A DNA stretch of 49,610 nt from assembly GCA_036348995.1 (NCBI GenBank), contig GCA_036348995.1_4855.1. The stretch is one strand, 5' to 3'. The notes beneath the pieces were generated by a model, which was not told where the DNA came from, made no database searches, and saw only the letters and a program-made list of their open reading frames with translations. The stretch is from Escherichia coli (GTDB lineage: Bacteria > Pseudomonadota > Gammaproteobacteria > Enterobacterales > Enterobacteriaceae). Both the position numbers and the translations under genes were made by a program. Of the stretch, positions 1,714 through 35,736 are shown one piece after another (position 1 is the stretch's first letter; every line of letters starts with the position of its first letter).

Positions 1714-1886
1714 TGACACCAGAACAATTCATCGAAAAACAGCTGCGCGCCAAACTTCCTGGAATCGACCAGATGGCAATTGATGCGGCAATCCAGTATT
1801 ACAAGAGCAATCAGAGCGCAAAGAAGGGCGGTATTTTTGAAGAATGCATGAAGGTTGCAAAGCAACATATGATTAAGGTGAAGTGA
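1713..1886 (+). CDS. small hypothetical protein (57 aa)
   Basis: ATGA overlaps at both ends; hand translation MTPEQFIEKQLRAK... Confidence 0.45.
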   Translation: MTPEQFIEKQLRAKLPGIDQMAIDAAIQYYKSNQSAKKGGIFEECMKVAKQHMIKVK

Positions 1887-2422
1887 TGAAACTAAAAATC
1901 AGCAAATTATTACTTGAGTCAGCATTAATATTTCAGGCGCGCAATGATGTGCGATATTACCTGAATGGCATCTGCTTTATGACTGATGGTCGTATTGCGT
2001 CAACTGACGGTCATCGCGCATTCATTGGTGGCAGCCATGACAATAAGCTGACAGAAAGTGTGATTATCAAGATTGGCAAGTCACCAACAAAACGCTATGA
2101 GTACGCCATACTTGATACTAAGTCGAAAATTGCAACGTATCATGATGAAGCTGGTGTGATGGTTGGCTCTGGTATCTGCGAAGAGATTGATGGTCGATTC
2201 CCTGATATTGATCGCGTGATACCAAAGGAAACGAAAGCAGCAGAGGAAATTAGCTTCAATTCTGGCTACCTTGTTGATATTGAGAAAGTGGCGAAGCTGT
2301 TTAACCCTAAATTCAGTAGCGTTAAGTTTGAACTGAATGGAAATACAAATGCCGCAGTTTGCTGTCTTAGTGCGCCAACTGGCGAGACTGCGAAGATTGT
2401 TGTTATGCCTATTCGCCTGTAG
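1886..2422 (+). CDS. truncated DNA polymerase III beta sliding-clamp (DnaN) homologue, about 1.5 domains
   Basis: motifs DVRYYLNG, STDGHRAF, DGRFPDIDRVIPKE, SFNSGYLVD and C-terminal IVVMPIRL match E. coli DnaN domain II and end of domain III (from memory). Confidence 0.75.
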   Translation: MKLKISKLLLESALIFQARNDVRYYLNGICFMTDGRIASTDGHRAFIGGSHDNKLTESVIIKIGKSPTKRYEYAILDTKSKIATYHDEAGVMVGSGICEEIDGRFPDIDRVIPKETKAAEEISFNSGYLVDIEKVAKLFNPKFSSVKFELNGNTNAAVCCLSAPTGETAKIVVMPIRL

Positions 2423-3370: not shown

Positions 3371-3591
3371 TCATCTTCGCTACCTGCGTGACGGCGACGT
3401 TTTGGCTTTTCATCACCATCTTTTTTTGCTGGCGTCGCAACCTCAAATGATTTTGGAAGCTCAGGCATGACGCGCAGTTTTGGTAGCAGATGCTCGTCTG
3501 GTTCGGTAATAACCTCGCCAAGCTGCAATTCACGAATCTTGCCTTTCTCTTTAACAAAGATTCCGCGAGCGATCACTTCGTATTTAGCCAT
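3367..3591 (-). CDS. hypothetical protein downstream of capsid gene
   Basis: ORF track; position in head module. Confidence 0.4.
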   Translation of the reverse strand: MAKYEVIARGIFVKEKGKIRELQLGEVITEPDEHLLPKLRVMPELPKSFEVATPAKKDGDEKPKRRRHAGSEDE

Positions 3592-24710: not shown

Positions 24711-24720
24711 CACACAGAGA

Positions 24721-25310
24721 AAGAAAAATCACGACTAAATGTTAGTGAACGTTAGCTTACATATATAGTTACATACATTACTAATAGTAACCTTTGTTTA
24801 TTACCTCTATAAAGTATATTAAGATCTTCTCTATATTTATTATAGATATTAGTAGCTTAGGTCGCAGAAACACGAAAACCAGCAATTAAGCTGGTTGATT
24901 TCAGTGGTTTCTATTTTTTTCTAATTTCTTCTACTTTCCGACCCGATGGGAAATGAAATTCCTTTTGTTTTTAGATGCTTCCAAGCGTTTTATTCTCTAT
25001 TTTCTATTTCCCGAGAATCATTTTGGTTTTTTTTCTTTCCAGAATTTTTTTTCAAAAGTTCTAGGTTTTTAGGAATTTAGAAATTAGAACTTAAACCTTT
25101 GATTTTACTGGTGTTCCATTTCCCAGTCATCTGGGAAATGGAAATTTGCATGTTATTGAAAATCAAGGTGAATTTCTATTTTCCACACCTTTATACTCCC
25201 GTCTGGAGGAATCGTCAATACTCATAACCAGAACAATCGACGTGGAATGTGTTGACTGCTCGTTTGTATTTTTTTATACTTTTATCAAAGTTCAGATCAA
25301 TGTGAGGCAA
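24721..25310. promoter_or_regulatory. AT-rich divergent control region with iterons and perfect inverted repeat; candidate origin
   Basis: no ORFs; repeated TTCTATTTTC and GGGAAATG(A/G)AAAT; 11-bp IR CCATTTCCCAG-TCAT-CTGGGAAATGG at 25116..25141. Confidence 0.45.
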
Positions 25311-25313
25311 GTG

Positions 25314-25532
25314 ATGAGTATTGAATACCGATTCGGGAGTGCGATAGCTGAGGTTTATGATTTTGTGTGCAACATGTCGGTTGGTGAAGAAAGGGTTTTT
25401 CATTTTGATGAATTTGTTGTTAATGATTTATCCAGTTTCAGAATGAGCCTTAGCAAGATTGCTGCAAGGAATGGATGGATGTTTAAGACGCGGGCTAAGG
25501 AAGATGGTTTGTGGGTGAAGAGAATTAAATGA
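25314..25532 (+). CDS. hypothetical early protein (paralogue of next gene C-terminus)
   Basis: ends ...GLWVKRIK; next protein ends ...TAYVERIK. Confidence 0.45.
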   Translation: MSIEYRFGSAIAEVYDFVCNMSVGEERVFHFDEFVVNDLSSFRMSLSKIAARNGWMFKTRAKEDGLWVKRIK

Positions 25533-25547
25533 AGAGTGGGGTGAGAT

Positions 25548-25970
25548 ATGAAGAAGTACTACATTGAGGTGGTTGGCGCTGGTGGTAAGAAAATGTATGT
25601 CTGCGGTCGCTATGGTTTTGTGCATGATTTTGCCTATGCAAGCCGCTTCAGGACAAAAGAAGAGGCTGAGAAGAATTTAGCTAAACGTAGAATGAGTCTT
25701 TCATACAAAATAAAATGTGATGAGCCACGAGTGAAAGAACTGGCTGTATCTGTACGTGAATCAAAGAGGACCATGGATGATGAGGCTCGCGGTTTCGTCT
25801 GGAGGCTTGGAGTTGGGCGTGGAAAGCATTTTGTTTTTGATGGATCTACCTTAATAAGTACGGCTAATCAGTTGCAAAAGGCTTTATACAGAGTTGGAAG
25901 GGAGTCAGAAAAAAAATTCAGTGTCAAGATGGTTACGCGCGATACTGCTTATGTGGAGAGAATTAAATGA
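25548..25970 (+). CDS. hypothetical early protein
   Basis: SD GGGGTGAG; ATGA overlap with primase. Confidence 0.45.
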   Translation: MKKYYIEVVGAGGKKMYVCGRYGFVHDFAYASRFRTKEEAEKNLAKRRMSLSYKIKCDEPRVKELAVSVRESKRTMDDEARGFVWRLGVGRGKHFVFDGSTLISTANQLQKALYRVGRESEKKFSVKMVTRDTAYVERIK

Positions 25971-28300
25971 TGATTGGTTATGAAGATTACCGTAGATGCA
26001 GCTTCCCTATTATCGACATTCATCCAATGGATGAGGAGCGCAACTGTACTTGTGGCGATCCGGAATGCAAGGCTGCGGGAAAACATCCGATTATGAGTAA
26101 CTGGCAGCTTGGTATCCAGTGGGATGATGAGCAGATTGAAAGCATGGCTAAGTATGGCAAGTTACAGTCATTCGGTGTTCTTGTGAATGGGTACCTTGTT
26201 GTTGATATTGACCCAAGAAATGGCGGTGATGATGGATATGAGGCGTTGTGTGATGCGTTAGATATTGAACTTGCTGATGAATCTGGTTTTACGGTTAAGA
26301 CTGGTGGCGGTGGTCGTCACATCTATTACAAACTTCCTGCTGGTGTGAAGTTGCGATCTCATGACAGGAGATTTAATGGCATTGACTTTAAATCATCTGG
26401 TTTCGTTATTGGCTGCGGCTCTTTCCATAAGTCAGGTAACTTTTATGAAGCTGAGCATGGTTCTCCTTCTGAGATAACTGAAGCTCCGTCTCAACTTATT
26501 GAACTTCTGCTTCGCCCTGAGAGAGCAGAAGATGAGGTTTTCTCGCTTGATAGTAAAAATTACAGCATTGCTGAAATGGAGGACATGCTCAGGTACATCA
26601 AGGATGGCGATGAGTACAATCCGTGGATAAATGTTGGGATGGCTATCCATGAAGCAACTGACGGTAATGGGTTTGACCTGTGGAACAACTGGTCATCACA
26701 GTTCAGCAAATACCGACCAGAAGAGATGGATGCCAAATGGCATTCCTTTGGTAAAGATGGAATTGACGACAAGATAACCGCAGGCACTCTTGTTTATCTG
26801 GCACAAGAGGGCGGATGGGTAAGGCAAGTAACTTTTGAGGCTACGCCAGAGGAAATTGAGAAACTTGAGTCTTTCGAGCGGGAAATGGCAATGGGTGTTG
26901 GTGAATGCCCTGTAGAGTACAAAAGCGTTGATGTCCGTTATCCGCCGGGTTTTGTTGGTCGCCTTGCTGCATGGATTAATAAGAACTGTGCAGAGAAGCG
27001 CGAGAATATTGCAGCACTTGCCGCACTACATGCCGCATCCATGATTTGCGGAGCGTCATCTGATATTTACCTTACAAACAGGAAGGCTTTACCAAATCTT
27101 TTTGCTGTTGGCATTGCGGGTTCCGGTTCAGGTAAAGGTGATGTTCTTGCAGCACTACAAAAGATAATTGATTGCTCAGGATTGAGTAAGACTGTCGCCG
27201 GTAAGATACGTTCAGAGCGTGCGATATATGAAGGTCTGTGTGCTAACCAGATGTTTAATATCATCATGGATGAGATTGGGATAAAACTTGGGAGTGTTGT
27301 TGGTCAGAAAGTAAGCGAATACAACATGGCAACCGCTGGTGCGATCATGGAGGCTTACACGTCAGAAGTTCTTTATTGTGACCAGCGTGTTACTGAGGAT
27401 TTCATTAAGTCTTTCGAAAAGAGAAAGGCTATGCTGTTGATGGCTATTGAGGAAAATGAGATACAGGCAGACCCAGTTGACATTAAGTGTCAGTTTGATG
27501 ATGTGATAAACAGAATTGACGGAGCTATAAGGAATCCATTTTTTTCAATCTTTGGTGTGTCTACTGATGATCAGTTTAAGCGCCTTATTACTGAAGAAAA
27601 CATTAAGTCAGGTCTTATGGGGCGCGCAATGATTATGCAGGAGTTGCAGGAGATTGCTGACGAAAACGAAAGCGTCAACTACTGTGATCTACCTATGGAT
27701 ATGCAACTGACCATAAAAACAATAATAAATGGCGGAACGGCTGGGCACAAAAACTGGACAGATTCAATCATCAGCCAAAAAGAAAGAAGGATTATAAAAG
27801 CTACACCTGAAGTTTCTCAGCTCGCTAAGGAGTTCTTCTCATGGATTAAAACCGTTGCAAGAAAGCATGTAGAAAACGGTACTGGTTATCACCCATTGAT
27901 AAACAGATGTGCTGTTAAAGTTGCAAAGATTGCTGGAATTCTCGCGTGCGATACCGGCGTCATAACCATGGAGCACTTGCGATATGCAGTAGCATTAACA
28001 ATTAAATCAACAAGCGACCTGATGATGCGTGCTGACAGCATTGCCGGAGCGAAGTCTAAAGCTATGGAGGAAAGGGTTGAAGGCCTGTTCTCCATGGTTA
28101 AAGAACATGTGAAACGCGGAATGACTAAAACAGCAATGATTAAAGGGGTAGCAAAAGATGGTGGATATAAGCGCGCAGATGTCGAGAGGTGTGTGGATAA
28201 GTTGCTATCCGATGGGGTTATTTGCATTGATGAAAGCGCAAAAAGAACATCCAACAGAGCAGTTATTTACAAATTAACAAATGATGAGGTTGAAATATGA
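25967..28300 (+). CDS. DNA primase (PrimPol-type N-domain) with C-terminal P-loop domain
   Basis: VVDIDPRNGG, GGGGRHIYY, GSGSGKG. Confidence 0.75.
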   Translation: MMIGYEDYRRCSFPIIDIHPMDEERNCTCGDPECKAAGKHPIMSNWQLGIQWDDEQIESMAKYGKLQSFGVLVNGYLVVDIDPRNGGDDGYEALCDALDIELADESGFTVKTGGGGRHIYYKLPAGVKLRSHDRRFNGIDFKSSGFVIGCGSFHKSGNFYEAEHGSPSEITEAPSQLIELLLRPERAEDEVFSLDSKNYSIAEMEDMLRYIKDGDEYNPWINVGMAIHEATDGNGFDLWNNWSSQFSKYRPEEMDAKWHSFGKDGIDDKITAGTLVYLAQEGGWVRQVTFEATPEEIEKLESFEREMAMGVGECPVEYKSVDVRYPPGFVGRLAAWINKNCAEKRENIAALAALHAASMICGASSDIYLTNRKALPNLFAVGIAGSGSGKGDVLAALQKIIDCSGLSKTVAGKIRSERAIYEGLCANQMFNIIMDEIGIKLGSVVGQKVSEYNMATAGAIMEAYTSEVLYCDQRVTEDFIKSFEKRKAMLLMAIEENEIQADPVDIKCQFDDVINRIDGAIRNPFFSIFGVSTDDQFKRLITEENIKSGLMGRAMIMQELQEIADENESVNYCDLPMDMQLTIKTIINGGTAGHKNWTDSIISQKERRIIKATPEVSQLAKEFFSWIKTVARKHVENGTGYHPLINRCAVKVAKIAGILACDTGVITMEHLRYAVALTIKSTSDLMMRADSIAGAKSKAMEERVEGLFSMVKEHVKRGMTKTAMIKGVAKDGGYKRADVERCVDKLLSDGVICIDESAKRTSNRAVIYKLTNDEVEI

Positions 28301-28692
28301 TTAACTACAAGTTCATCGTAATGAAAGGATTGTTTGATTACTTTGAATCCGAAGACCCTGAAGGTGGTCATCACAACGCAATCTCTCTGATGACAGGTAA
28401 ACACCTGATGGAGGTTTACTACTGGAAGTTTCCCGTATTCCGTTGCAATATGGGAGTCTGCATTGATGATGACGTTTTGTTTTGCAGGATAAAATACAAA
28501 AACAATATTGGCATAGTAACAGCTGCATACAGGGATGTTGCAAAAAAATCAGGGAACTGGCATCCAAGCGAAGTATTCGCTGGTGACGCACTATTTAATT
28601 TCTGTAAGGCGTTTGGTGTTTTGTATGAGGATGTAAGCAAAGAGTATAGCGGAAGGCGTGAGAAAGATAGCTTAAGCTCAAAAGGAGCATAA
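28297..28692 (+). CDS. hypothetical protein
   Basis: ORF track. Confidence 0.4.
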   Translation: MINYKFIVMKGLFDYFESEDPEGGHHNAISLMTGKHLMEVYYWKFPVFRCNMGVCIDDDVLFCRIKYKNNIGIVTAAYRDVAKKSGNWHPSEVFAGDALFNFCKAFGVLYEDVSKEYSGRREKDSLSSKGA

Positions 28693-28695
28693 CAA

Positions 28696-28724
28696 AAAGC
28701 CCGCAAACGCGGGCTTTATTATTT
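28696..28724. terminator. bidirectional intrinsic terminator
   Basis: hairpin AAAGCCCGC-AAAC-GCGGGCTTT plus T-run. Confidence 0.7.
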
Positions 28725-28964
28725 AACAATCCATTTTGTAACAGCTGGCCTTAAATCTTCCTTTCTGAAAACTCCACCAGTAAGTTTCTCGGCATCAATT
28801 GCTGCTGTAGCGCTAATTCTTCCTCTTGACACCCACTGATTGACAGCCTGTTTTGACACACCAAGAAACCTTGCCAGTTGTGATTGCCCTCCAACATAAT
28901 CAATCAGCTCTGATAGCTTTGTCTGTTCCATTTCTCTTATCTGTTCTGCGATGCTTTTCATGTG
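28719..28964 (-). CDS. Cro/YdaS-like helix-turn-helix regulator
   Basis: QSQLARFLGVSKQAVNQWVSRGR; lone minus-strand gene inside replication island. Confidence 0.55.
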   Translation of the reverse strand, partial: HMKSIAEQIREMEQTKLSELIDYVGGQSQLARFLGVSKQAVNQWVSRGRISATAAIDAEKLTGGVFRKEDLRPAVTKWIVK

Positions 28965-29095
28965 TTTACCTCTGCTATCTGTATGCAGCAATAATGAACT
29001 CAAAAAAAATTTTCGTCAAGGTATTGCGTTTACCATCACGTTGACGTATCTTTAAGTCACACCAGCGATATGCTGAGTTAAATCGAGAGGACACT

Positions 29096-29938
29096 ATGAG
29101 CTTATCAATGATTCAAAAACCAAAACCGGCAGCACCAATCATAACATTGGTTGGTACTCCAGGTGTAGGCAAGACAACTCTTGCAGCGCTATTCCCAAGC
29201 CCAGTGTTTATTCAGGCTGAAGAGATCACTGGTGTTTTTGACGACTGGGATGATGAAAAGAAACCAGATTCATTTCCTGTACTGAAGCGAGCTGATGCTA
29301 AACGCAAAACAAGCACAAAGGATGATTTGCTGTCACAGCTACGCGCATTAATTACTGAGGAACATAATTACAAAACGCTTGTAATTGACTCAATCACAAG
29401 CCTGCATTCAATGTTTGAACATGAGGTTTGTGAAAATTACGGTGTTGACAACGTTGGTTCTGCGGCTGGCGGTTACAATAAAGGATATATTGTTGTTTCT
29501 GAAATGCACGCTGAAATAATAAATGCATGTAAGTATCTTCGCAAAGAAAAAGGGATGAGCATTATTTATCTTGCACACGCAGGTGTTAAAAAGATGAAGA
29601 ATCGCCCTGATGCTGATGAATACACCGTTTACACACTTGACATGCATGATGCTTCAGTTTCTGGTTATGTGAATCTTAGTGATGCTGTTATTTACATCAG
29701 AAATGAAGAGTTTGTGAAAGGGACTGAGACTGATAAGAAAGGGCAAGTCACTAAGTTTGGGAAGGTTGTTCAGACTGGTCAGCGAGTTCTTATCACCTCT
29801 GGTGACGGTCGGGTTGGGTATGTTAATGCAAAAAACAGATACAACCTTGAACCTGAAATTCCTTTTGAAAAAGGTGAGAACCCACTTTTGAGTGAGATTA
29901 AATATTATGCATCTATACGAGATAACCAAACAGCTTAA
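29096..29938 (+). CDS. Sak4-like RecA-fold ATPase (recombination)
   Basis: Walker A GTPGVGKTT; adjacent to SSB-like gene. Confidence 0.6.
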   Translation: MSLSMIQKPKPAAPIITLVGTPGVGKTTLAALFPSPVFIQAEEITGVFDDWDDEKKPDSFPVLKRADAKRKTSTKDDLLSQLRALITEEHNYKTLVIDSITSLHSMFEHEVCENYGVDNVGSAAGGYNKGYIVVSEMHAEIINACKYLRKEKGMSIIYLAHAGVKKMKNRPDADEYTVYTLDMHDASVSGYVNLSDAVIYIRNEEFVKGTETDKKGQVTKFGKVVQTGQRVLITSGDGRVGYVNAKNRYNLEPEIPFEKGENPLLSEIKYYASIRDNQTA

Positions 29939-30386
29939 TGAACTGCTGGCGATGGAGGATATTCCACGTGAGCAGATTGAAGATACCATCAATCTTATTG
30001 AAGAGGAGTTTGAAGGAAAGGCTGAAATGGTTGCTGCTTACATTCGTGAGCTTGAAGCTGATGAAGCTGGACTTAAATCCGAGATTGACCGTCTTTCTGA
30101 GCGTAAGCGTGTCTTAGTTGCGAAGATTGATAACCTTAAAGATTATCTTCGTCAAAACATGATGGCGTCAGGAAAGACAAATATCAAAGGTAAGTTGTTC
30201 AGTATCACTCTTGGCAAACCGTCACCAGTTCTTGATGTGTTTGTTCCTGTTGAACAGCTTCCTGAGCAGTACCGGGTTGTGAAAGTGTCGGCAGATAACG
30301 CAGCAATTAAAAATGCGATAAAAGCCGGGATTGAAATTAAGGGTTGTGCCATCACCGACGGCAAACCGAAACTGATCATCAAATAA
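29907..30386 (+). CDS. hypothetical protein (Gp157-like?)
   Basis: position between Sak4-like and SSB-like genes. Confidence 0.35.
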   Translation: MHLYEITKQLNELLAMEDIPREQIEDTINLIEEEFEGKAEMVAAYIRELEADEAGLKSEIDRLSERKRVLVAKIDNLKDYLRQNMMASGKTNIKGKLFSITLGKPSPVLDVFVPVEQLPEQYRVVKVSADNAAIKNAIKAGIEIKGCAITDGKPKLIIK

Positions 30387-30403
30387 ATCGAGAGGACACA
30401 AAA

Positions 30404-30925
30404 ATGGGTTTCTGGAATCTTTCTGACGGTAAAGCTGTTGAATCTAAATCTGAATTTGAACTTGGTGGTGGTTTTGAAGTAATTCCTGATGGTAGCCGTG
30501 TTCTTGCTGCCGTTGAAGAATGTAAAGACGACCAGTGGGAAGGTGAGCGATTCTTCAATCTTAAGTGGCGAATCCTTGAGGGTGAGTATAAAAATCGCAT
30601 CATCTTCCAGAAGCTGAAAGTATTTAGCTCAAAAGAAAAGCAGCGCGACAATGCTATCACTATGCTTGCAGCAATTGACACAAACGCCGGTGGTAAGCTG
30701 ATGGCATCAGGGAAAGAGCCGACTGATTTTGCTATTGCCAGCGCGCTTGCAAATCGCCCAATGATTCTTCTTCTGCGCGTTTGGGAGTCTGAGGATAAGC
30801 AAAAAACTGGTAACTATGTGGCTGGCGTTTTCAGTCGTCAACAGACAAAAGCAGCACCTGCTCCTAAGCAATCTGCACCGTCTAACGAGCCTCCGATGGA
30901 CTTTAGTGATGATGTGCCTTTTTAA
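30404..30925 (+). CDS. ssDNA-binding-like protein with SSB-type acidic C-terminal tip (PMDFSDDVPF)
   Basis: C-terminus matches E. coli SSB tip; N-terminal domain divergent. Confidence 0.6.
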   Translation: MGFWNLSDGKAVESKSEFELGGGFEVIPDGSRVLAAVEECKDDQWEGERFFNLKWRILEGEYKNRIIFQKLKVFSSKEKQRDNAITMLAAIDTNAGGKLMASGKEPTDFAIASALANRPMILLLRVWESEDKQKTGNYVAGVFSRQQTKAAPAPKQSAPSNEPPMDFSDDVPF

Positions 30926-30978
30926 TTTAGATTGGAATGACAGGGCCATTCGTGGCCCTTTTTATTCGAGAGGACACT

Positions 30979-32847
30979 ATGAAAGTACAGCTTAGAACAT
31001 ACCAACAAGAAGCTGTTGATTCTGTTATAGGTCATATTCGTTCAAGCGTTTCATCGTGCATGATCATCTTGCCTACAGGGTCTGGAAAAAGCGTTGTTGT
31101 TGCATCAATCGCCGATTGGGTATTTAAAAATACTGGAAAGCGCGTTCTGTGTGTTGCCCCAACAAGCGAGTTAGTTGTGCAAAACAGGCAGCGTTATCTT
31201 TCTCTGACAGGAGAACCAGCCAGCATGTTCAGTGCAAAGGCTGGACCAAAGAACCTGCGTCATCCGGTGGTGTTTGGTTCACCAGTTACAATCAAGAACT
31301 CAATAGAGATGTTTGGTGACAAGTATGGTGCTGTCATTATTGATGAGTGCGATGGAATAACACCAACCATTAAATTTATTATTAATGAAATGAAGCGTCG
31401 CAATCCAAAGCTGCGTGTTATTGGAATGACTGCTACGCCTTACCGCCTTGGAACTGGATACATCTACAAAGAGCACTACCTCGATGGTCCTACAGATGAA
31501 GAAACTGCCATTGACCCATATTATGATAAGGTTGTTTATGAGCTTGAGGCTAAATTCCTCATTGAAAACGGATACCTTACGCCGCCAGTTACAGAGCCTG
31601 TTGTTGATGAATATGATACGTCTTGTCTTGAAAAGGATAAGTTGGGTCGGTACACAACATCTTCAGTTGAAAAGGCGATGGTTGGCAAAGGAAGGAAGAC
31701 ATCACGTATTGTTGAAGATATTATCCGTCGCTCTGTTAATCGGCGCGGAACGATGATTTTTGCCAGTACTAAGAAACACGCTATGGAGATAATGGAGTCA
31801 CTTCCTCCCGGTTCTTATAGTTATGTTTTTGGTGATATGCCAACAGCAGATCGCAACAAGGCAATATCAGACTTCAAGGCACAAAAAGTTAAATACATCG
31901 TTAACCAGAATATCCTTACTGTAGGGGTGGATGTTCCTCATTGTGATCATATAGCAGTCATGAGAGCCACAGAATCACCAAGGCTCTACCAGCAAATAAT
32001 TGGCAGAGGGACGCGCCTTTATGAAGGCAAGGAAGATTTTCTTGTCAGCGATTACGCAGGCAACATTCAGCGCCACTTTTCTGAGACTGGGGACTTATTC
32101 ACTCCAGAAATAAAAGCAACAAGGAAAAAACCATCCGTGCCAATGGATGTTAAATGCCCTCTTTGTGGCTTTATTAATGAATTTGGTGTGCGTCCAAATC
32201 CTGAAAATCTTGAAGTTGACAAGGAAGGTTACTGGCTTGATTTGGCTGGTGACAGGGTGATGATTGATATTTTTGATAAATCAGGTGAAAAAATTGGAAG
32301 CAAGCCTATGCCTGCTCATTTTGGGAGGAGGTGTAAAAACTACGTTATGCACGGGCCATTAAGGGAAATGCACAGGTGTACTTATAAGTGGTCGGTGAAA
32401 GAGTGTCCTGATTGTGGATTTGAAAATGATATAGCGGCAAGAAACTGCACATCATGCGGTGCTGAAATCATTGACCCAAACCAAAAGCTAAAAGAAGAAG
32501 CTGACAGGCTTGATTCTTCTCCTTATGCAACAAAGCAATCAAGCGTAACCATGATGAACATCATGAAGCATTACGTTTCAAGTGGTGAAGATTTGGTGCA
32601 CGTAAAATTTGCTATTGACCAGAAGCCATTTTTTGTTAGCAAGTTCTACAACCCAAACTCTGAGAAGGAATGGATGAAGAAGGAGTGGGAAGAGTTTTGC
32701 GGGAAGTGCTTTGGTGAATCTGACATGTCAATTGAGGATGCAATAGCAAGAAGAGATGAAGCTGTCGCGCCATCAGTGATCATGTTCAGAAGAGACAAGG
32801 GTAGTAAATATTTCAACGTTAAAGGCATGTATTGGGGGGTATTATGA
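30979..32847 (+). CDS. SF2 DNA helicase with C-terminal zinc ribbons
   Basis: LPTGSGKS, DECD, TATP, QIIGRGTR; CPLCGF and CPDCGF. Confidence 0.85.
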   Translation: MKVQLRTYQQEAVDSVIGHIRSSVSSCMIILPTGSGKSVVVASIADWVFKNTGKRVLCVAPTSELVVQNRQRYLSLTGEPASMFSAKAGPKNLRHPVVFGSPVTIKNSIEMFGDKYGAVIIDECDGITPTIKFIINEMKRRNPKLRVIGMTATPYRLGTGYIYKEHYLDGPTDEETAIDPYYDKVVYELEAKFLIENGYLTPPVTEPVVDEYDTSCLEKDKLGRYTTSSVEKAMVGKGRKTSRIVEDIIRRSVNRRGTMIFASTKKHAMEIMESLPPGSYSYVFGDMPTADRNKAISDFKAQKVKYIVNQNILTVGVDVPHCDHIAVMRATESPRLYQQIIGRGTRLYEGKEDFLVSDYAGNIQRHFSETGDLFTPEIKATRKKPSVPMDVKCPLCGFINEFGVRPNPENLEVDKEGYWLDLAGDRVMIDIFDKSGEKIGSKPMPAHFGRRCKNYVMHGPLREMHRCTYKWSVKECPDCGFENDIAARNCTSCGAEIIDPNQKLKEEADRLDSSPYATKQSSVTMMNIMKHYVSSGEDLVHVKFAIDQKPFFVSKFYNPNSEKEWMKKEWEEFCGKCFGESDMSIEDAIARRDEAVAPSVIMFRRDKGSKYFNVKGMYWGVL

Positions 32848-33299
32848 TTTTTCCAGAAGGCGTTAAGGTATATGGTGATTTAGATTACAGAAACAAAAAG
32901 TGCCCGTCAGAAGATGCTGAGCTGGAGACTTTTGTTAATCAGATAAGGAGGCTATATCCTGACTTTGCAAGAGTTATGATTCATGTACCAAATGAAGGAA
33001 AGCGTAAAGGGTATGAAGTTGAAAACCTGAAGAAAAAAGGCGCGCTAAACTTCGGGGCGTCAGACATCATCATCATAGGAAAGCAATCATTCGTTATGGA
33101 GATGAAAAGAATGGATCATACTTTATCAAAATGGCAGCCCGGTCAAATGGCATACTTAAAGGCGGCAAAAGAATTAGACTCATTCGCGTGTGTATGCCTT
33201 GGTTGGGAGGCTGCAATGATGGCATTTAATGACTGGAGAGCAATAAATTACCCAAACTATAAAAAACCATCAGAGCCATTGATATTTGATGGTTTTTAG
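32844..33299 (+). CDS. VRR-NUC domain nuclease
   Basis: PD-(D/E)xK-like GASDIIII...FVMEMKR; ends at TAG 33297-33299. Confidence 0.7.
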   Translation: MIFPEGVKVYGDLDYRNKKCPSEDAELETFVNQIRRLYPDFARVMIHVPNEGKRKGYEVENLKKKGALNFGASDIIIIGKQSFVMEMKRMDHTLSKWQPGQMAYLKAAKELDSFACVCLGWEAAMMAFNDWRAINYPNYKKPSEPLIFDGF

Positions 33300-33416
33300 C
33301 AACCACGCCAGCAATCAGGGCAACAATCGCAACGGCAACAGCAGCCACAAAAACAACAAAGCCAACAAGGAGGAAATGAGCCTCCGATGGATTTCGATGA
33401 CGACATTCCGTTCTAA
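33300..33416 (+). other. in-frame post-amber extension encoding Q-rich linker plus E. coli-type SSB tip (MDFDDDIPF)
   Basis: same frame as VRR-NUC; AAGGAGG at 33367-33373 and ATG at 33387; stop TAA 33414-33416. Confidence 0.5.
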
Positions 33417-33425
33417 TGATAAAAA

Positions 33426-33465
33426 TAACCCCGCTTCGGCGGGGTTATTGTTAAATGGTTTTTAT
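33426..33465. terminator. bidirectional intrinsic terminator
   Basis: hairpin TAACCCCGC-TTCG-GCGGGGTTA with T-runs on both sides. Confidence 0.7.
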
Positions 33466-35736
33466 TTGCCACCGTCGATCATAGTAATGGGCGAATCCGC
33501 TATACGTCAAAGTCATGTGAACAATAGCCATTGATATTGATGCTGACGGGCAGCTGACACGGATGAATGTTTGTCCGCCAGTAACTAACTTCTGCACATT
33601 AAACCCTGACAGGCTTTTATCCCCCGCGTCAATGTTACTCCATAAAGCCCCCGATGCTACGTTGGCCTGACTGCTCCCGGATATGCTAAACATTACGCGA
33701 CCCCCGGCCTCTTTACCACTAAGCCCATTTTTGTTTACTGGAATTATTGACATTTCCCCTGCGAGGAAACACGCACCATACCTTGATTCTTCGCCGACCG
33801 TGGTTAGCAGGATGTCTACAGCTCGGTTCCACGGCAGTATGAACGTTGCCGTCTCTGTTTTTACTTCGTTAAAGTAGGCGCCCGCCGTCACATTTATTGA
33901 TGAAAGAGTTACGCCGTCGTAGGAATTGCGTCCTTCTAATGGTGCGTGACCATACACCCTATTACCTGACTTAATACTCCGAACTCTGGTGTCAGATGAT
34001 CTTGAATTGTTCGTAACTTTAACGAATCTAAAATTATCTCCTAAAACCAGAGAGTTACCGTAAGACTCCACGTTTCCTGACGTATTTTTGTTTATTAAGT
34101 TAATATGATAATCCGCCTTAACGTAGCCGGAGTCCAGCATAATACTGCCACTCGGCATTCTTGCCTCGCTTGATGGCATTTCAATGAAATGGGTGACACC
34201 AGTATTCATTGAACTTTGAATCCAACATGACAATCCTTTAATGGTGAACTTAAACTGGTCATCTGTTTCGGCATAATCAGAGAAATCAATACCCACAGTG
34301 CCGTTTATGCCCTCGATACCCATGCCGTCTATGGTTACGGACCGCAACTGCCCGCCTACACGATGTGGTCGTATACAACCATCAGCGGCGATATTTGACG
34401 CAGTTACGTACATAACAGGGTATCCACCGGCTACAGGCTCGTATGTACTTCTGTCTATGGAATAACCCCACAGAAAGCCATCGTCACAGTGGTGCGCCCA
34501 TATAGAATTAATGTTGGTGCTGGTATTTCCGCTAAGAGCAAGTCCGTACTTGCAATCGTACATATAGATGTTTTCTATTGTACTGACGAAAGTAAGAGAC
34601 GGTAGCGCGAATTTATAATGATAGAACTCAACATTACGAATCGTGTACAGTTTACCTCCACCACCGGATAATGTGGACCCACTTATCATTAACGGGCATC
34701 CAACATAATCTGCGTCAGCATTTCTGAAAGCAATGTTTTCAACAGAAAGGTTATGCCCCCACGAGGTACTTACGAATCCACCAGTTGTCGATGTGTATAT
34801 AATGCTTTTACGGGGAGAGTCGCCAATAAGGTTAAGCATTACACCATCCCATCTGTACGCACTAATGTCAATCTGTGTGCTGCCGATATAGATGGGCTGT
34901 TCAATTAATAAAGGAATATTGTGCGCAATACTTGCGGTATACGCGGCCAGCATCGCGGCCCCGTCGTCATGGGTGGTGGAAAGATTAGCGGCTCCCATGC
35001 TTGGTGCTTTAGGGTACGGAGTTCCCTGAATGGTGTTGCCGTCGATATATGGGGCATCCATCCACGCACCAAACATCTTAGGGGTAATTCCGCGAACTTC
35101 TGACAAGTCTCTCTTCCAGCGTTTACCTCCACTAGTAACTATAACAACGCCGTTGTCATCATTGGTGGCAGAGTCTGTTAAGTCCGCATAAAACCACCCG
35201 CCACCAGAATCACCAGACTCATTTGGTGCAATTGATGTTGTATGTTTTTCTACAAAAATGCGCTGTCCATCAATATCAGGTTCAATAGTTCTTAATGTTG
35301 ATATATCAACGCATTTGCCGATTAACTTAAATCCATCGTTTTTATTTAATTGACTCCTTAATGAAGCATCGCCAACACTAACCCACGCGCCAAGACCAAT
35401 ACCTCCAGAAGTTTCTGGAGTTGAGCCAGCAGTTACTGTTTTAGGGAATTCACCATCCCAGCGATAGTATTCACCAGTTTCCTTATAACGAAGCACCTGA
35501 TTTGGAAGTGCCAATGAAGCGCCATCTTCAAAGCTGTCCATCGTGATATAGCCATAATTACGGATAGCTTCTTCTGCGGTGTACTGAAATCCAGCAATTG
35601 TCCAGCGGCGAACACCGAAGCGATCGGTGTAGTAATGCGCATCAGATGTCACTACCTCGTCGATTTTCCCTGCATTGAATTTCAGGTCACGAGGATCTTC
35701 TGACGGAATTGGTTTATTGGTTGGTGTGGTAGCCAT
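33451..35736 (-). CDS. tail fiber / tailspike (receptor-binding, possible beta-helix depolymerase)
   Basis: 761 aa, last gene of tail operon, Gly/Asn-rich repeats. Confidence 0.6.
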   Translation of the reverse strand: MATTPTNKPIPSEDPRDLKFNAGKIDEVVTSDAHYYTDRFGVRRWTIAGFQYTAEEAIRNYGYITMDSFEDGASLALPNQVLRYKETGEYYRWDGEFPKTVTAGSTPETSGGIGLGAWVSVGDASLRSQLNKNDGFKLIGKCVDISTLRTIEPDIDGQRIFVEKHTTSIAPNESGDSGGGWFYADLTDSATNDDNGVVIVTSGGKRWKRDLSEVRGITPKMFGAWMDAPYIDGNTIQGTPYPKAPSMGAANLSTTHDDGAAMLAAYTASIAHNIPLLIEQPIYIGSTQIDISAYRWDGVMLNLIGDSPRKSIIYTSTTGGFVSTSWGHNLSVENIAFRNADADYVGCPLMISGSTLSGGGGKLYTIRNVEFYHYKFALPSLTFVSTIENIYMYDCKYGLALSGNTSTNINSIWAHHCDDGFLWGYSIDRSTYEPVAGGYPVMYVTASNIAADGCIRPHRVGGQLRSVTIDGMGIEGINGTVGIDFSDYAETDDQFKFTIKGLSCWIQSSMNTGVTHFIEMPSSEARMPSGSIMLDSGYVKADYHINLINKNTSGNVESYGNSLVLGDNFRFVKVTNNSRSSDTRVRSIKSGNRVYGHAPLEGRNSYDGVTLSSINVTAGAYFNEVKTETATFILPWNRAVDILLTTVGEESRYGACFLAGEMSIIPVNKNGLSGKEAGGRVMFSISGSSQANVASGALWSNIDAGDKSLSGFNVQKLVTGGQTFIRVSCPSASISMAIVHMTLTYSGFAHYYDRRWQIKTI

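Follow-up and report, generated by a model that had tools for sequence, protein, structure and literature searches.

The 117-nt tail that follows the stop codon of a predicted VRR-NUC-like nuclease gene in the window (the whole 49,610-nt stretch of DNA analyzed here) is very probably a non-functional leftover of an ssb 3′ end, left at the joint of a module swap, and not a recoded extension of the nuclease. An earlier note had observed that the frame stays open past the TAG (33297–33299) into a Q-rich linker and the SSB tip MDFDDDIPF, and had offered amber readthrough, a separate nine-residue peptide, or the relic of an ancestral ssb gene as explanations. All of its sequence statements hold. 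The relic option fits best: the tail would be the right-hand scar of an 8.6-kb replacement, at a place occupied in sister phages by an entire ssb gene.

The ssb-like tail and the joint in front of it

In the nuclease frame, positions 33300–33413 give 38 open codons (QPRQQSGQQSQRQQQPQKQQSQQGGNEPPMDFDDDIPF), followed by TAA at 33414–33416. The last 13 residues encoded by the tail are NEPPMDFDDDIPF, as at the C-terminus of E. coli SSB, and the translation ends QGGNEPPMDFDDDIPF. The codons for MDFDDDIPF, the SSB C-terminal tip (33387..33413, plus strand), specify the same peptide as many functional phage ssb genes. The tail resembles ssb far more than chance would allow. Annotated ssb 3′ ends in hundreds of phage records match the 159 nt that start at 33297 (best E values 1e-45 to 1e-47); the remnant matches 394 phage records, and among the matches listed nearly all fall under annotated ssb genes. 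Tail DNA is 86–91% identical to real ssb 3′ ends. The 38-residue translation matches SSB PHROGs, covering only the C-terminal 30–35 profile positions. Two features of bacterial-type SSB (PF00436), the disordered linker and the acidic tip ending in IPF, are present; the OB-fold ssDNA-binding domain of that family is absent from the 38 codons. As a whole, the ssb remnant (33298..33416, plus strand) comprises the Q-rich linker, the tip, and its own TAA, without an OB fold, a promoter, or a start of its own. The sole in-frame start codon within the tail is ATG 33387, and none precedes codon 30.

Whole-genome blastn gives a collinear alignment of the window and Skatevirus PHA46_2, with roughly 70–98% nucleotide identity save for an 8.6-kb block (24715..33297). 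The alignment breaks off after 24714 and picks up again at 33298, within the 3′ end of the PHA46_2 ssb. That real ssb occupies the same locus, ahead of the same terminator and convergent tailspike gene. The position of the joint can be read directly from the alignment, in which real ssb genes have GGT CAG CAA CCA CGC... and the window has TTT TAG CAA CCA CGC.... Homology that resumes at the base after the block, an intact ssb in the sister phage, and a tail with neither OB fold nor early start are the marks of a remnant at a mosaic joint. In three different junction forms, however, joint and nuclease stop are only 0–3 nt apart, a closer fit than randomly placed joints should show, and this counts against a simple leftover.

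The block is a plus-strand replication/recombination module with no nucleotide homology to PHA46_2 by blastn. Pfam matches within it identify a PrimPol/D5-like protein (25967..28300), a Sak4-like AAA_24 protein (29096..29938), and Gp157 (29892..30386). These are followed, also on the plus strand, by a DUF669-type SSB (30404..30925; Pfam DUF669, E=1.1e-5; PHROG 9002 'single strand DNA binding protein', E=3.9e-69) and an SF2 helicase (30937..32847; Pfam ResIII, Helicase_C, and DEAD), whose stop overlaps the nuclease start. The DUF669 protein ends in PMDFSDDVPF, the second tip to which the earlier note had drawn attention, and its C-termini are conserved in relatives; the sequence matches point to it as the phage's own, functional SSB.

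In IME207, PHA46_2, ZX4, VLCpiS13f, and ZC2, the gene order is exo, Erf/recombinase, and a complete bacterial-type ssb. A convergent tail-fibre gene follows ssb in IME207, PHA46_2, ZX4, and ZC2 (the VLCpiS13f stretch ends with its record, and the gene is not in it), and a G+C-rich hairpin lies directly 3′ of ssb in IME207, PHA46_2, ZX4, and VLCpiS13f. The G+C-rich hairpin terminator of the window (33424..33449) was reported on the minus strand by a terminator scan and is also seen in the predicted fold of the plus-strand RNA. It lies between the convergent early operon and tailspike gene and is conserved in L001, L004, L005, L002, and L007. The tailspike gene itself (33451..35736, minus strand, from the ORF list) contains another swapped cassette in its distal part (33454..35356), where blastn found no homology to PHA46_2, and each close relative has a different tailspike or tail-fibre gene.

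The tail would then be the last 38 codons and stop of the bacterial-type ssb that sister phages hold at this locus. In the lineage of the window, the primase/helicase/exonuclease/Erf/ssb block would have been replaced by an incoming block with PrimPol, Sak4, Gp157, the DUF669 SSB, the helicase, and the VRR-NUC-like nuclease, although the direction and order of this replacement are inferred. The right-hand joint would have the native stop of the nuclease on one side and the interior of the ssb linker on the other. Loss of the ssb body would have cost nothing, because the new block brings its own SSB.

The nuclease gene and the tail in its relatives

The start codon of the nuclease ORF (32844..33299, plus strand), ATG 32844, overlaps the stop of the helicase gene as ATGA. 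The ORF encodes a VRR-NUC-like PD-(D/E)xK protein of 151 aa, with a native C-terminal Phe directly before the TAG. It matches PHROG 824 (E=7e-38). Residues D74, E86, and K88, invariant across 30 homologues, correspond to the PD-(D/E)xK catalytic residues. The earlier assignment of this protein to VRR-NUC appears sound by predicted fold and a weak profile match, and not by Pfam. VRR_NUC (PF08774) gives no match to the nuclease even at E<=10, and so none above the gathering score; no precomputed Pfam domain is assigned to any of the 58 homologue clusters, and a direct PDB sequence search with the nuclease returned no match. A profile search gave a weak match to PDB 4qbl_A 'VRR-NUC' (E=0.03). With an AF2 model of the nuclease (pLDDT 88.4), the top six Foldseek matches are 4qbl and 4qbo VRR_NUC structures (best E=5.4e-4, probability 1.0, TM 0.63/0.77).

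Homologues about 64–98% identical to the nuclease, including those of the tail-less L009 and L012, all end in Phe followed by a stop. The longest homologue in the 58 clusters is at most 152 aa, and no fused form is found among them. TAG stops are rare in this phage (two of 51 long ORFs). When C follows it, UAG terminates comparatively weakly in E. coli, so trace readthrough of the nuclease stop surely occurs. A sequencing error at this stop is ruled out by 12 independent assemblies that have a stop there.

Variation of the stop is observed directly. Among 12 distinct close (group-1) relatives, ten have TAG and two (Sa179lw and Sf11) have TAA; none has a sense codon, which the earlier note had proposed as the sign of a fused protein. 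A metagenome scan for junctions with NNN at the stop yielded one new contig, with TAG as well, and a Logan look-up yielded one more. The more distant (group-2) nuclease genes end in TGA or TAA.

An open, in-frame tail is present in the window, in ten of 11 other distinct group-1 genomes, and in both common junction types. Decay and absence of the tail are equally plain. In L021 the tail is interrupted at codon 8 by a second in-frame TAG; the remnant of L014 is short, lies in the +1 frame, and encodes the degenerate tip PPMEDDIPF; and L009, L012, and L015 have no ssb remnant. L009 and L012 still have the terminator in common with ssb-type phages. More distant relatives have a different, shorter ssb remnant or none at all, and the tip motif is found within 300 nt downstream of the nuclease in none of 68 distant loci. 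A segment that can be decayed, shifted, or absent is dispensable in the manner of a gene remnant, and L014, L021, and the three tail-less relatives supply the kind of case that the earlier note had named as grounds for calling it a relic. The TTT TGA C of L014 resembles the prfB shift site, but +1 frameshifting there was rejected as coincidence, with no upstream Shine–Dalgarno (SD) sequence and a degenerate tip.

Group-2 relics have a TGA ATG layout, in which the ATG is not derived from ssb and directly follows the stop in ten of 11 sequences (L029 has ATT in its place). An ATG so placed gives the arrangement of a translationally coupled micro-ORF and speaks against a simple relic. When it was asked whether the ATG is a vestige of the donor gene, a start codon within −4 to +15 nt of the nuclease stop was found in only 11 of the 68 distant loci.

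Tip conservation and alternative readings

Relic tips have pN/pS values of 0.03–0.09, as low as those of functional ssb tips, and no frameshift is present inside the tip codons of 20+ relic sequences. In group 1, pS is 0.20 in the nuclease, 0.16 in the first seven tail codons, 0.69 in the last 15, and about 1.1 in the last nine; diversity thus climbs from the joint toward the tip, and at synonymous sites the tip is 3–5 times as diverse as the nuclease next to it. Functional ssb 3′ ends and relic tails interleave, and the relics are as close or closer to functional tails than to each other. Identity to functional ssb tails is 100% over 131 nt for L028, 99% for L029, and 98.5% for L030, and for the window tail, identity is higher to the real ssb locus L039 (89.3%) than to the best relic (87.3%). 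Of 11 tip haplotypes from group-2 relics, seven also occur in real ssb genes, and in YX3973-type group-1 phages the tip, terminator, and fibre end are common to Klebsiella group-2 and ssb-type phages.

The high tip diversity and the interleaving of relic and functional ssb sequences point to repeated crossovers inside the remnant. The appearance of purifying selection on the tip is most simply explained as imported from functional ssb genes, and import is preferred to selection acting on relic tips in situ. Low pN/pS was considered as a sign of translation and rejected, because diversity rises along the tail and real ssb alleles fall among the relic ones, both of which indicate import. Together, the remnant and terminator still amount to about 150 nt homologous to ssb-type phages, and crossovers inside the remnant may accompany exchange of tailspike cassettes and re-import a 'fresh' tip from functional ssb genes. 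The tip would look selected because functional ssb tip sequence keeps arriving in this way.

As the earlier note had stated, AAGGAGG (33367–33373) lies 13 nt upstream of ATG 33387, and CCTCC (33381–33385) pairs with GGAGG in the predicted fold. The whole element (33367..33385, plus strand) is probably a by-product of the Q-G-G-N-E-P-P codons and not a dedicated ribosome-binding site. The stretch from AAGGAGG to ATG is coding sequence for QGGNEPPM, unchanged in functional ssb genes; the pattern GGAGG...CC(T/A)(C/T)C also occurs in the functional ssb genes L002, L003, L007, and L008 and is absent from group-2 relics. A start and ribosome-binding site kept beyond the parent coding sequence, as a micropeptide gene would have, are not seen. 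The only notable match in an Rfam scan of 32700–33700 was a sub-threshold RsmY (33332–33448; 29.4 bits, gathering score 57). This was set aside as a chance or terminator match: only the terminator CCCCGCUUCGGCGGGG pairs as in the RsmY consensus, and the internal hairpin fails to form. The real ssb 3′ end in L007 scores only 15–17 bits. No stimulatory readthrough element specific to the nuclease stop was found in the Rfam scan or the predicted folds.

Low-level readthrough could make a minor nuclease isoform, in which the Q-rich linker and SSB tip tether the predicted junction-cutting nuclease to tip-docking host or phage proteins. The frame of the tail in group 1, a UAG-C stop of a type used by only two long ORFs, and an intact tip peptide are all compatible with such a product, but neither stop identity nor stop context is conserved, with TAA in Sa179lw and Sf11 and TGA or TAA in group 2. 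The extension is not open and in frame in all relatives, given the second stop of L021 and the +1 frame of L014, and it is missing from L009, L012, L015, and the 68 distant loci. No sense codon at any of 12 junctions and no homologue above 152 aa leave this option of the earlier note without comparative support; all features of the tail derive from ssb, import accounts for its conservation, and the isoform is very unlikely. It is likewise highly improbable that a free small tip peptide serves as a decoy for SSB-tip binding pockets, whether MDFDDDIPF from ATG 33387 or, in group 2, 22–24 aa from the post-stop ATG. Such a peptide could draw on the AAGGAGG at 13 nt and on the post-stop ATG, not derived from ssb, of most group-2 relics. 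Against the nine-residue product, which the earlier note had also put forward, the SD-like GGAGG and the ATG are simply GG and M codons, the 13-nt spacing is poor, the GGAGG is paired in the predicted fold, and the second relic type lacks the arrangement. Nor is any one way of expressing the peptide conserved, because group 2 lacks an SD before the internal ATG and group 1 lacks a post-stop ATG; in L029, ATT stands where other group-2 relics have the post-stop ATG. An unstructured peptide of nine residues would also be expected to need micromolar levels to compete with SSB.

The remnant might alternatively be kept as useful DNA, a homology 'linker' for swaps of tailspike and recombination cassettes, selected at the level of the lineage. 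Crossovers clearly inside the remnant, the rise in diversity from joint to tip, the interleaving of relic and real tails, the tip, terminator, and fibre end common across groups, and the different tailspike of each close relative would suit this role. However, that the remnant is used in recombination is no proof that selection retains it, and the terminator is common to ssb-type phages and to L009 and L012 even though these two have no tail. Second-order selection for evolvability is also hard to demonstrate, and the proposal overlaps with that of a leftover ssb end, in which the same crossovers are a consequence and not a purpose; retention for this purpose seems unlikely. There is also a slim chance that the remnant is active, through occasional readthrough in group 1 or re-initiation at TGA ATG in group 2, giving a nuclease–tip fusion or a 22–24-aa peptide that docks on SSB-tip-binding host proteins as tether or decoy. 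This is kept alive by the joint at 0–3 nt from the stop in three forms, the group-2 ATG in ten of 11 sequences, and the lack of frameshifts in 20+ tips. The leftover ssb end is nevertheless the preferred reading, and the tail is probably not translated to a useful level.

Implications and comparison with known systems

The ssb scar is most likely an ordinary mark of phage mosaicism and not evidence of a recoded protein. It carries a caution, since an exact peptide motif in frame past a stop, together with a signature of purifying selection, mimics recoding. Both features are most simply inherited and then refreshed from a functional gene of sister phages by recombination across the module boundary. 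One mosaic breakpoint is here placed to the base, and the approximately 150 nt of ssb tail and terminator would form a crossover zone for tailspike and recombination cassettes in Skatevirus-like, Buchananvirus-like, and Klebsiella siphophages, which may also be useful for engineering the host range of these phages. For annotation, neither Sf11_gp12-like ORFs nor 'extended' nucleases should be called at this locus. If an active remnant were real after all, it would be a new phage route into the host network of SSB interactions, for a nuclease or for a decoy peptide.

Programmed readthrough is known from the Qbeta A1 protein (UGA) and retroviral gag-pol (UAG). The tail resembles such cases in having a stop followed by an open in-frame extension, but differs in that the stop type varies (TAG, TAA, TGA) and that some relatives have the extension broken by a stop, in another frame, or not at all. 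The nuclease resembles the stand-alone VRR-NUC Holliday-junction nucleases (PDB 4QBL, 4QBO) in its predicted fold and D...E-x-K triad, and its gene sits in a Sak4/SSB/helicase recombination module. In contrast to those enzymes, it is too diverged for any Pfam match and is best described as a predicted nuclease.

The C-terminal peptide of SSB, SSB-Ct (...PMDFDDDIPF), is a docking peptide for genome-maintenance proteins (PMC10164576, PMC7913777). The tail end NEPPMDFDDDIPF is identical to that of many enterobacterial phage SSBs in this survey, but, unlike an SSB, the tail has no OB fold, start codon, or promoter and lies behind a stop codon, most probably untranslated. Sak4-type recombination modules with a cognate SSB have been described, as for HK620 Sak4 (PMC5928155; Lopes et al. 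2010, PMC2896510). Here too an AAA_24 Sak4-like protein is encoded close to an SSB with an acidic tip; unlike in HK620-type modules, this SSB is of the DUF669 type, and an ssb remnant, apparently from a displaced Erf-type module, lies downstream. A preprint that seems to tie SSB to the modularity of receptor-binding proteins is irrelevant, as 'SSB' there denotes the SSBH fold.

Extensive mosaicism has been described in the Skatevirus/Buchananvirus/Cedarrivervirus group (PMC11769527), in an account of the same phage group that makes no mention of this particular ssb scar. As cited there, joints or remnants at module boundaries were reported for the lambdoid phages HK97 and HK022 (Juhala et al. 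2000) and, as 'linker' sequences, for HK620 (Clark et al. 2001). The locus in the window shares with mosaic joints of tailed phages nucleotide homology that breaks off sharply at the edge of a gene, an alternative non-homologous module of analogous function, and a short conserved boundary stretch that is reused for homologous exchange. In contrast to the HK97, HK022, and HK620 joints, this one cuts into a gene on one side and leaves a recognisable 38-codon fragment, by coincidence in frame with the gene upstream.

The nuclease gene and its 3′ flank

The nuclease ORF (32844..33299, +) runs from ATG 32844 to a TAG stop at 33297–33299. An ATGA overlap at 32844–32847 joins the helicase stop to the nuclease start, a hint that the two genes are translationally coupled as part of the module. 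The label VRR-NUC, given to the product in the earlier note, holds by fold and profile but not by Pfam, where no VRR_NUC match was found even at E ≤ 10; a direct sequence search of the PDB also gave no match. Because Asp74, Glu86, and Lys88 are invariant in an alignment of 30 sequences, the alignment profile matches PDB entry 4qbl_A ('VRR-NUC') at E = 0.03, and the structures closest to the AlphaFold model (pLDDT 88.4) are the VRR_NUC entries 4qbl and 4qbo (probability 1.0, TM 0.63/0.77), the name VRR-NUC-like PD-(D/E)xK nuclease is justified by predicted fold rather than by a family model. Every homologue at about 64–98% identity, including those from relatives lacking the downstream tail, ends in Phe followed by a stop, so the nuclease natively ends at this codon. 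TAG stops are scarce in the window, terminating 2 of 51 non-overlapping ORFs of at least 100 aa (the nuclease and ORF 1883..2422, both followed by C).

Beyond the TAG, 38 open codons continue in the nuclease frame (33300–33413, +; TAA 33414–33416) and translate as QPRQQSGQQSQRQQQPQKQQSQQGGNEPPMDFDDDIPF, ending in the SSB tip MDFDDDIPF. ATG 33387 is the sole in-frame start codon within this tail. AAGGAGG (33367–33373, +) ends 13 nt before it, and the predicted RNA fold pairs GGAGG with CCTCC (33381–33385). A terminator scan places a G+C-rich hairpin terminator 3′ of the tail (33424–33449), and in the ORF list a convergent tailspike gene (−) ends at 33451. A second tip, PMDFSDDVPF, ends the SSB gene at 30404..30925 (+), which is assigned to DUF669/PHROG 9002. 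The reading frame, stop, ATG, AAGGAGG hairpin, and both tips are as the earlier note described them.

Two further features overlap the region. An 82-codon ORF in the +1 frame (33286–33534) spans the remnant, terminator, and tailspike 3′ end; its counterpart in phage Sf11, Sf11_gp12 (L004 4190–4372), is labelled a hypothetical protein; the gene call is almost certainly spurious. A sub-threshold Rfam match to RsmY covers 33332–33448 (+; 29.4 bits against a gathering score of 57, E about 1e-5), with the terminator CCCCGCUUCGGCGGGG as the only paired region agreeing with the RsmY consensus; the 3′ end of a real ssb gene (L007) scores only 15–17 bits.

A probable ssb 3′ remnant at a mosaic joint

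The tail is likely to be what is left, untranslated, of an ssb gene at a mosaic joint. Together with the terminator, it would now act as a zone of homologous crossover through which tailspike and recombination cassettes are exchanged. Hundreds of phage records match the 159 nt from 33297 (E down to 1e-47), nearly all listed matches lying under annotated ssb, so the tail is not a chance resemblance. The same nuclease and tail occur in the close relatives Sa179lw (Buchananvirus), Sf11 (Cedarrivervirus), ECO111 5-P, and YX3973. Tail DNA is 86–91% identical to the 3′ ends of complete, annotated bacterial-type ssb genes of IME207 (Shuimuvirus), PHA46_2 (Skatevirus), Bas82, and PSH-1. In IME207 and PHA46_2 the gene is last in an exonuclease–recombinase–ssb block and directly precedes the same terminator and convergent tail-fibre gene. 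Alignment sets GGT CAG CAA CCA CGC of ssb against TTT TAG CAA CCA CGC of the window, which marks the start of homology.

By whole-genome blastn, the window and PHA46_2 are collinear almost everywhere at 70–98% nucleotide identity. Window positions 24715..33297, encoding PrimPol/D5-like, Sak4-like AAA_24, Gp157, DUF669 SSB, SF2 helicase, and nuclease proteins, have no counterpart in PHA46_2; homology returns within the TAG, at its second base (33298). An 8.6-kb module was therefore replaced, and the tail is the scar at its right-hand end, bearing out the suggestion of a relic ssb 3′ end. The ssb-bearing module would be the one displaced, its ssb losing the body and retaining the last 38 codons.

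A second break in homology to PHA46_2 covers the distal two-thirds of the tailspike gene (33454–35356, −), and the N-terminal part (from 35357) is homologous. The distal part forms a second swapped cassette, directly adjoining the remnant and terminator, and tailspikes differ in every close relative. CAACCA lies directly 3′ of the nuclease stop in all three junction types: TAG CAACCA CGC (window 33297–33305), TGA AT(G/T) CAACCA TCA (L026/L029 near 1957–1968), and TGAC CAACAACCA TCC (L014, phage VLCpiS13b, near 3457–3470). It may be a microhomology used in joint formation. The interval between DUF669 SSB and helicase also varies, with a 2826-nt helicase annotation in YX3973 (L006 923–3748), an extra small ORF in Sa179lw (L001 1657–1872) and gmqsjt-1 (L012 768–1145), and an endonuclease gene in VLCpiS13b (L014 638–1120); such variation may reflect insertions or differing annotation.

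Stop codons, remnants, and translation

Twelve distinct junctions of close relatives (group 1) were collected from GenBank phages, IMG/VR, one Logan contig, and one metagenome contig with a search pattern allowing NNN at the stop. The nuclease ends in TAG in ten and TAA in two, and in none does a sense codon, which the earlier note had named as a sign of fusion, replace the stop. Second-tier relatives (group 2; nuclease identity 64–70%) use TGA or TAA. In most of them the remnant is of another, shorter kind, TGA ATG (A/C)AA CCA TCA ... NEPPMD(F)DDDIPF, which from CAA CCA TCA onward matches the Klebsiella-phage ssb-type 3′ end ...GWGKPQQPSNTQKPPANEPPMDFDDDIPF. Out-of-frame or decaying copies, proposed as the mark of a relic, were found among relatives. 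The tail of L021 has an in-frame TAG at codon 8, the L276 tip has three amino-acid changes (NESPMEFDDSIPF), and VLCpiS13b keeps an even shorter remnant in the +1 frame (tip PPMEDDIPF). Phages gmqsjt-1, ECO95 1-6-1, and Yersinia P400 have none, the terminator following the nuclease stop directly. No relic tip contains a frameshift. In VLCpiS13b (L014 3440–3510) the nuclease end, GAG TTT TGA C, resembles the prfB +1 shift site and is followed by the degenerate remnant DQQPSNSPPMEDDIPF in the +1 frame; since it has no upstream SD, this is probably coincidence and decay.

Translation of the tail is probably negligible. Amber readthrough yielding a nuclease–tip fusion, which the earlier note also raised, is highly improbable given the variable stop type and the interrupted L021 tail; no fused form occurs among the 12 junctions, in the 58 homologue clusters of a 5.8-billion-protein set (all at most 152 aa), or at 68 more distant nuclease loci (44–57% identity), where the 300 nt downstream never contain a tip-like motif. 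A free tip peptide or coupled micro-ORF is equally improbable. The SD-like GGAGG...CC(T/A)(C/T)C...ATG is simply the codons for GGNEPPM (NEPSM in Bas82); functional ssb genes have it in the same form, and group-2 relics lack it. Some points still speak for the rival readings: three junction forms each put the joint within 0–3 nt of the nuclease stop, relic tips are free of frameshifts, TAG is rare among the long ORFs of this phage, and an ATG, not ssb-derived (real ssb has CAG there), directly follows the stop in 10 of 11 group-2 relics.

This TGA ATG (L010, L011, L013, L024–L031, e.g., L011 3457–3534; ATT in L029) opens a 22–24-codon ORF, MKPSNTQKPPANEPPMDFDDDIPF, and judged by sequence the arrangement is that of a putative translationally coupled micro-ORF. 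Several IMG/VR ssb loci among L035–L193 encode about 15 residues beyond the tip (...MDFDDDIPFAPIGLPYPRHAIYVI before the stop), leaving the canonical tip internal. The tip motif is thought to require a free C-terminus, and an internal tip is hence unexpected.

Tip diversity and phage mosaicism

Relic tips differ from one another almost exclusively at synonymous sites (pN/pS 0.03–0.09, compared with 0.08–0.13 in functional ssb tips), which on its own would argue for translation. This is outweighed by three observations. Across one common set of ten group-1 genomes, the nuclease has a synonymous diversity of 0.20 and the first seven codons of the tail 0.16; the figure rises to 0.69 over the final 15 codons and to about 1.1 over the final nine, which exceeds what could arise in place since the group-1 common ancestor. 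Relic and functional sequences interleave: group-2 relics L028, L029, and L030 are 100% (over 131 nt, through the terminator and beyond), 99%, and 98.5% identical to real ssb loci, 7 of the 11 tip haplotypes among group-2 relics also occur unaltered in real ssb genes, and the window itself matches the real ssb locus L039 best (89.3% over 177 nt, tailspike end included), ahead of the best relic (87.3%). Functional ssb genes also contain each of the relic variants MDDDIPF, NETP, NEPT, and DDSIPF. Finally, in YX3973-type group-1 phages the 3′ half of the tip, the terminator, and the end of the fibre gene are common to Klebsiella phages of group 2 and of the ssb type, and crossover has therefore taken place within the tip codons. 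Together these point to import of the tip by recombination rather than translation; the remnant would have been repeatedly overwritten by sequence selected elsewhere. That it is retained by selection as a recombination linker, a reading that overlaps with the remnant explanation, is improbable.

Some phage SSBs are known to carry host-like tips, and they are of current interest as defence-system triggers. Sak4-plus-SSB modules, which the block with its Sak4-like AAA_24 protein and DUF669 SSB resembles, have been described (PMC5928155 and PMC2896510). On an ssb-remnant scar PMC11769527, the one paper searched on this phage group, is silent; it reports extensive mosaicism for exactly this set of genera. 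Sharp gene-boundary joints and short conserved boundary sequences reused in recombination are classic in phage mosaicism (Juhala 2000 and Clark 2001, cited in PMC11769527). The sharp joint at the nuclease stop and the boundary sequence reused for crossover have the same character. The scar is a fresh instance of this known mosaicism with no new mechanism, and it is chiefly useful as a case study in which recombination gives a dead fragment the look of a selected, recoded extension.
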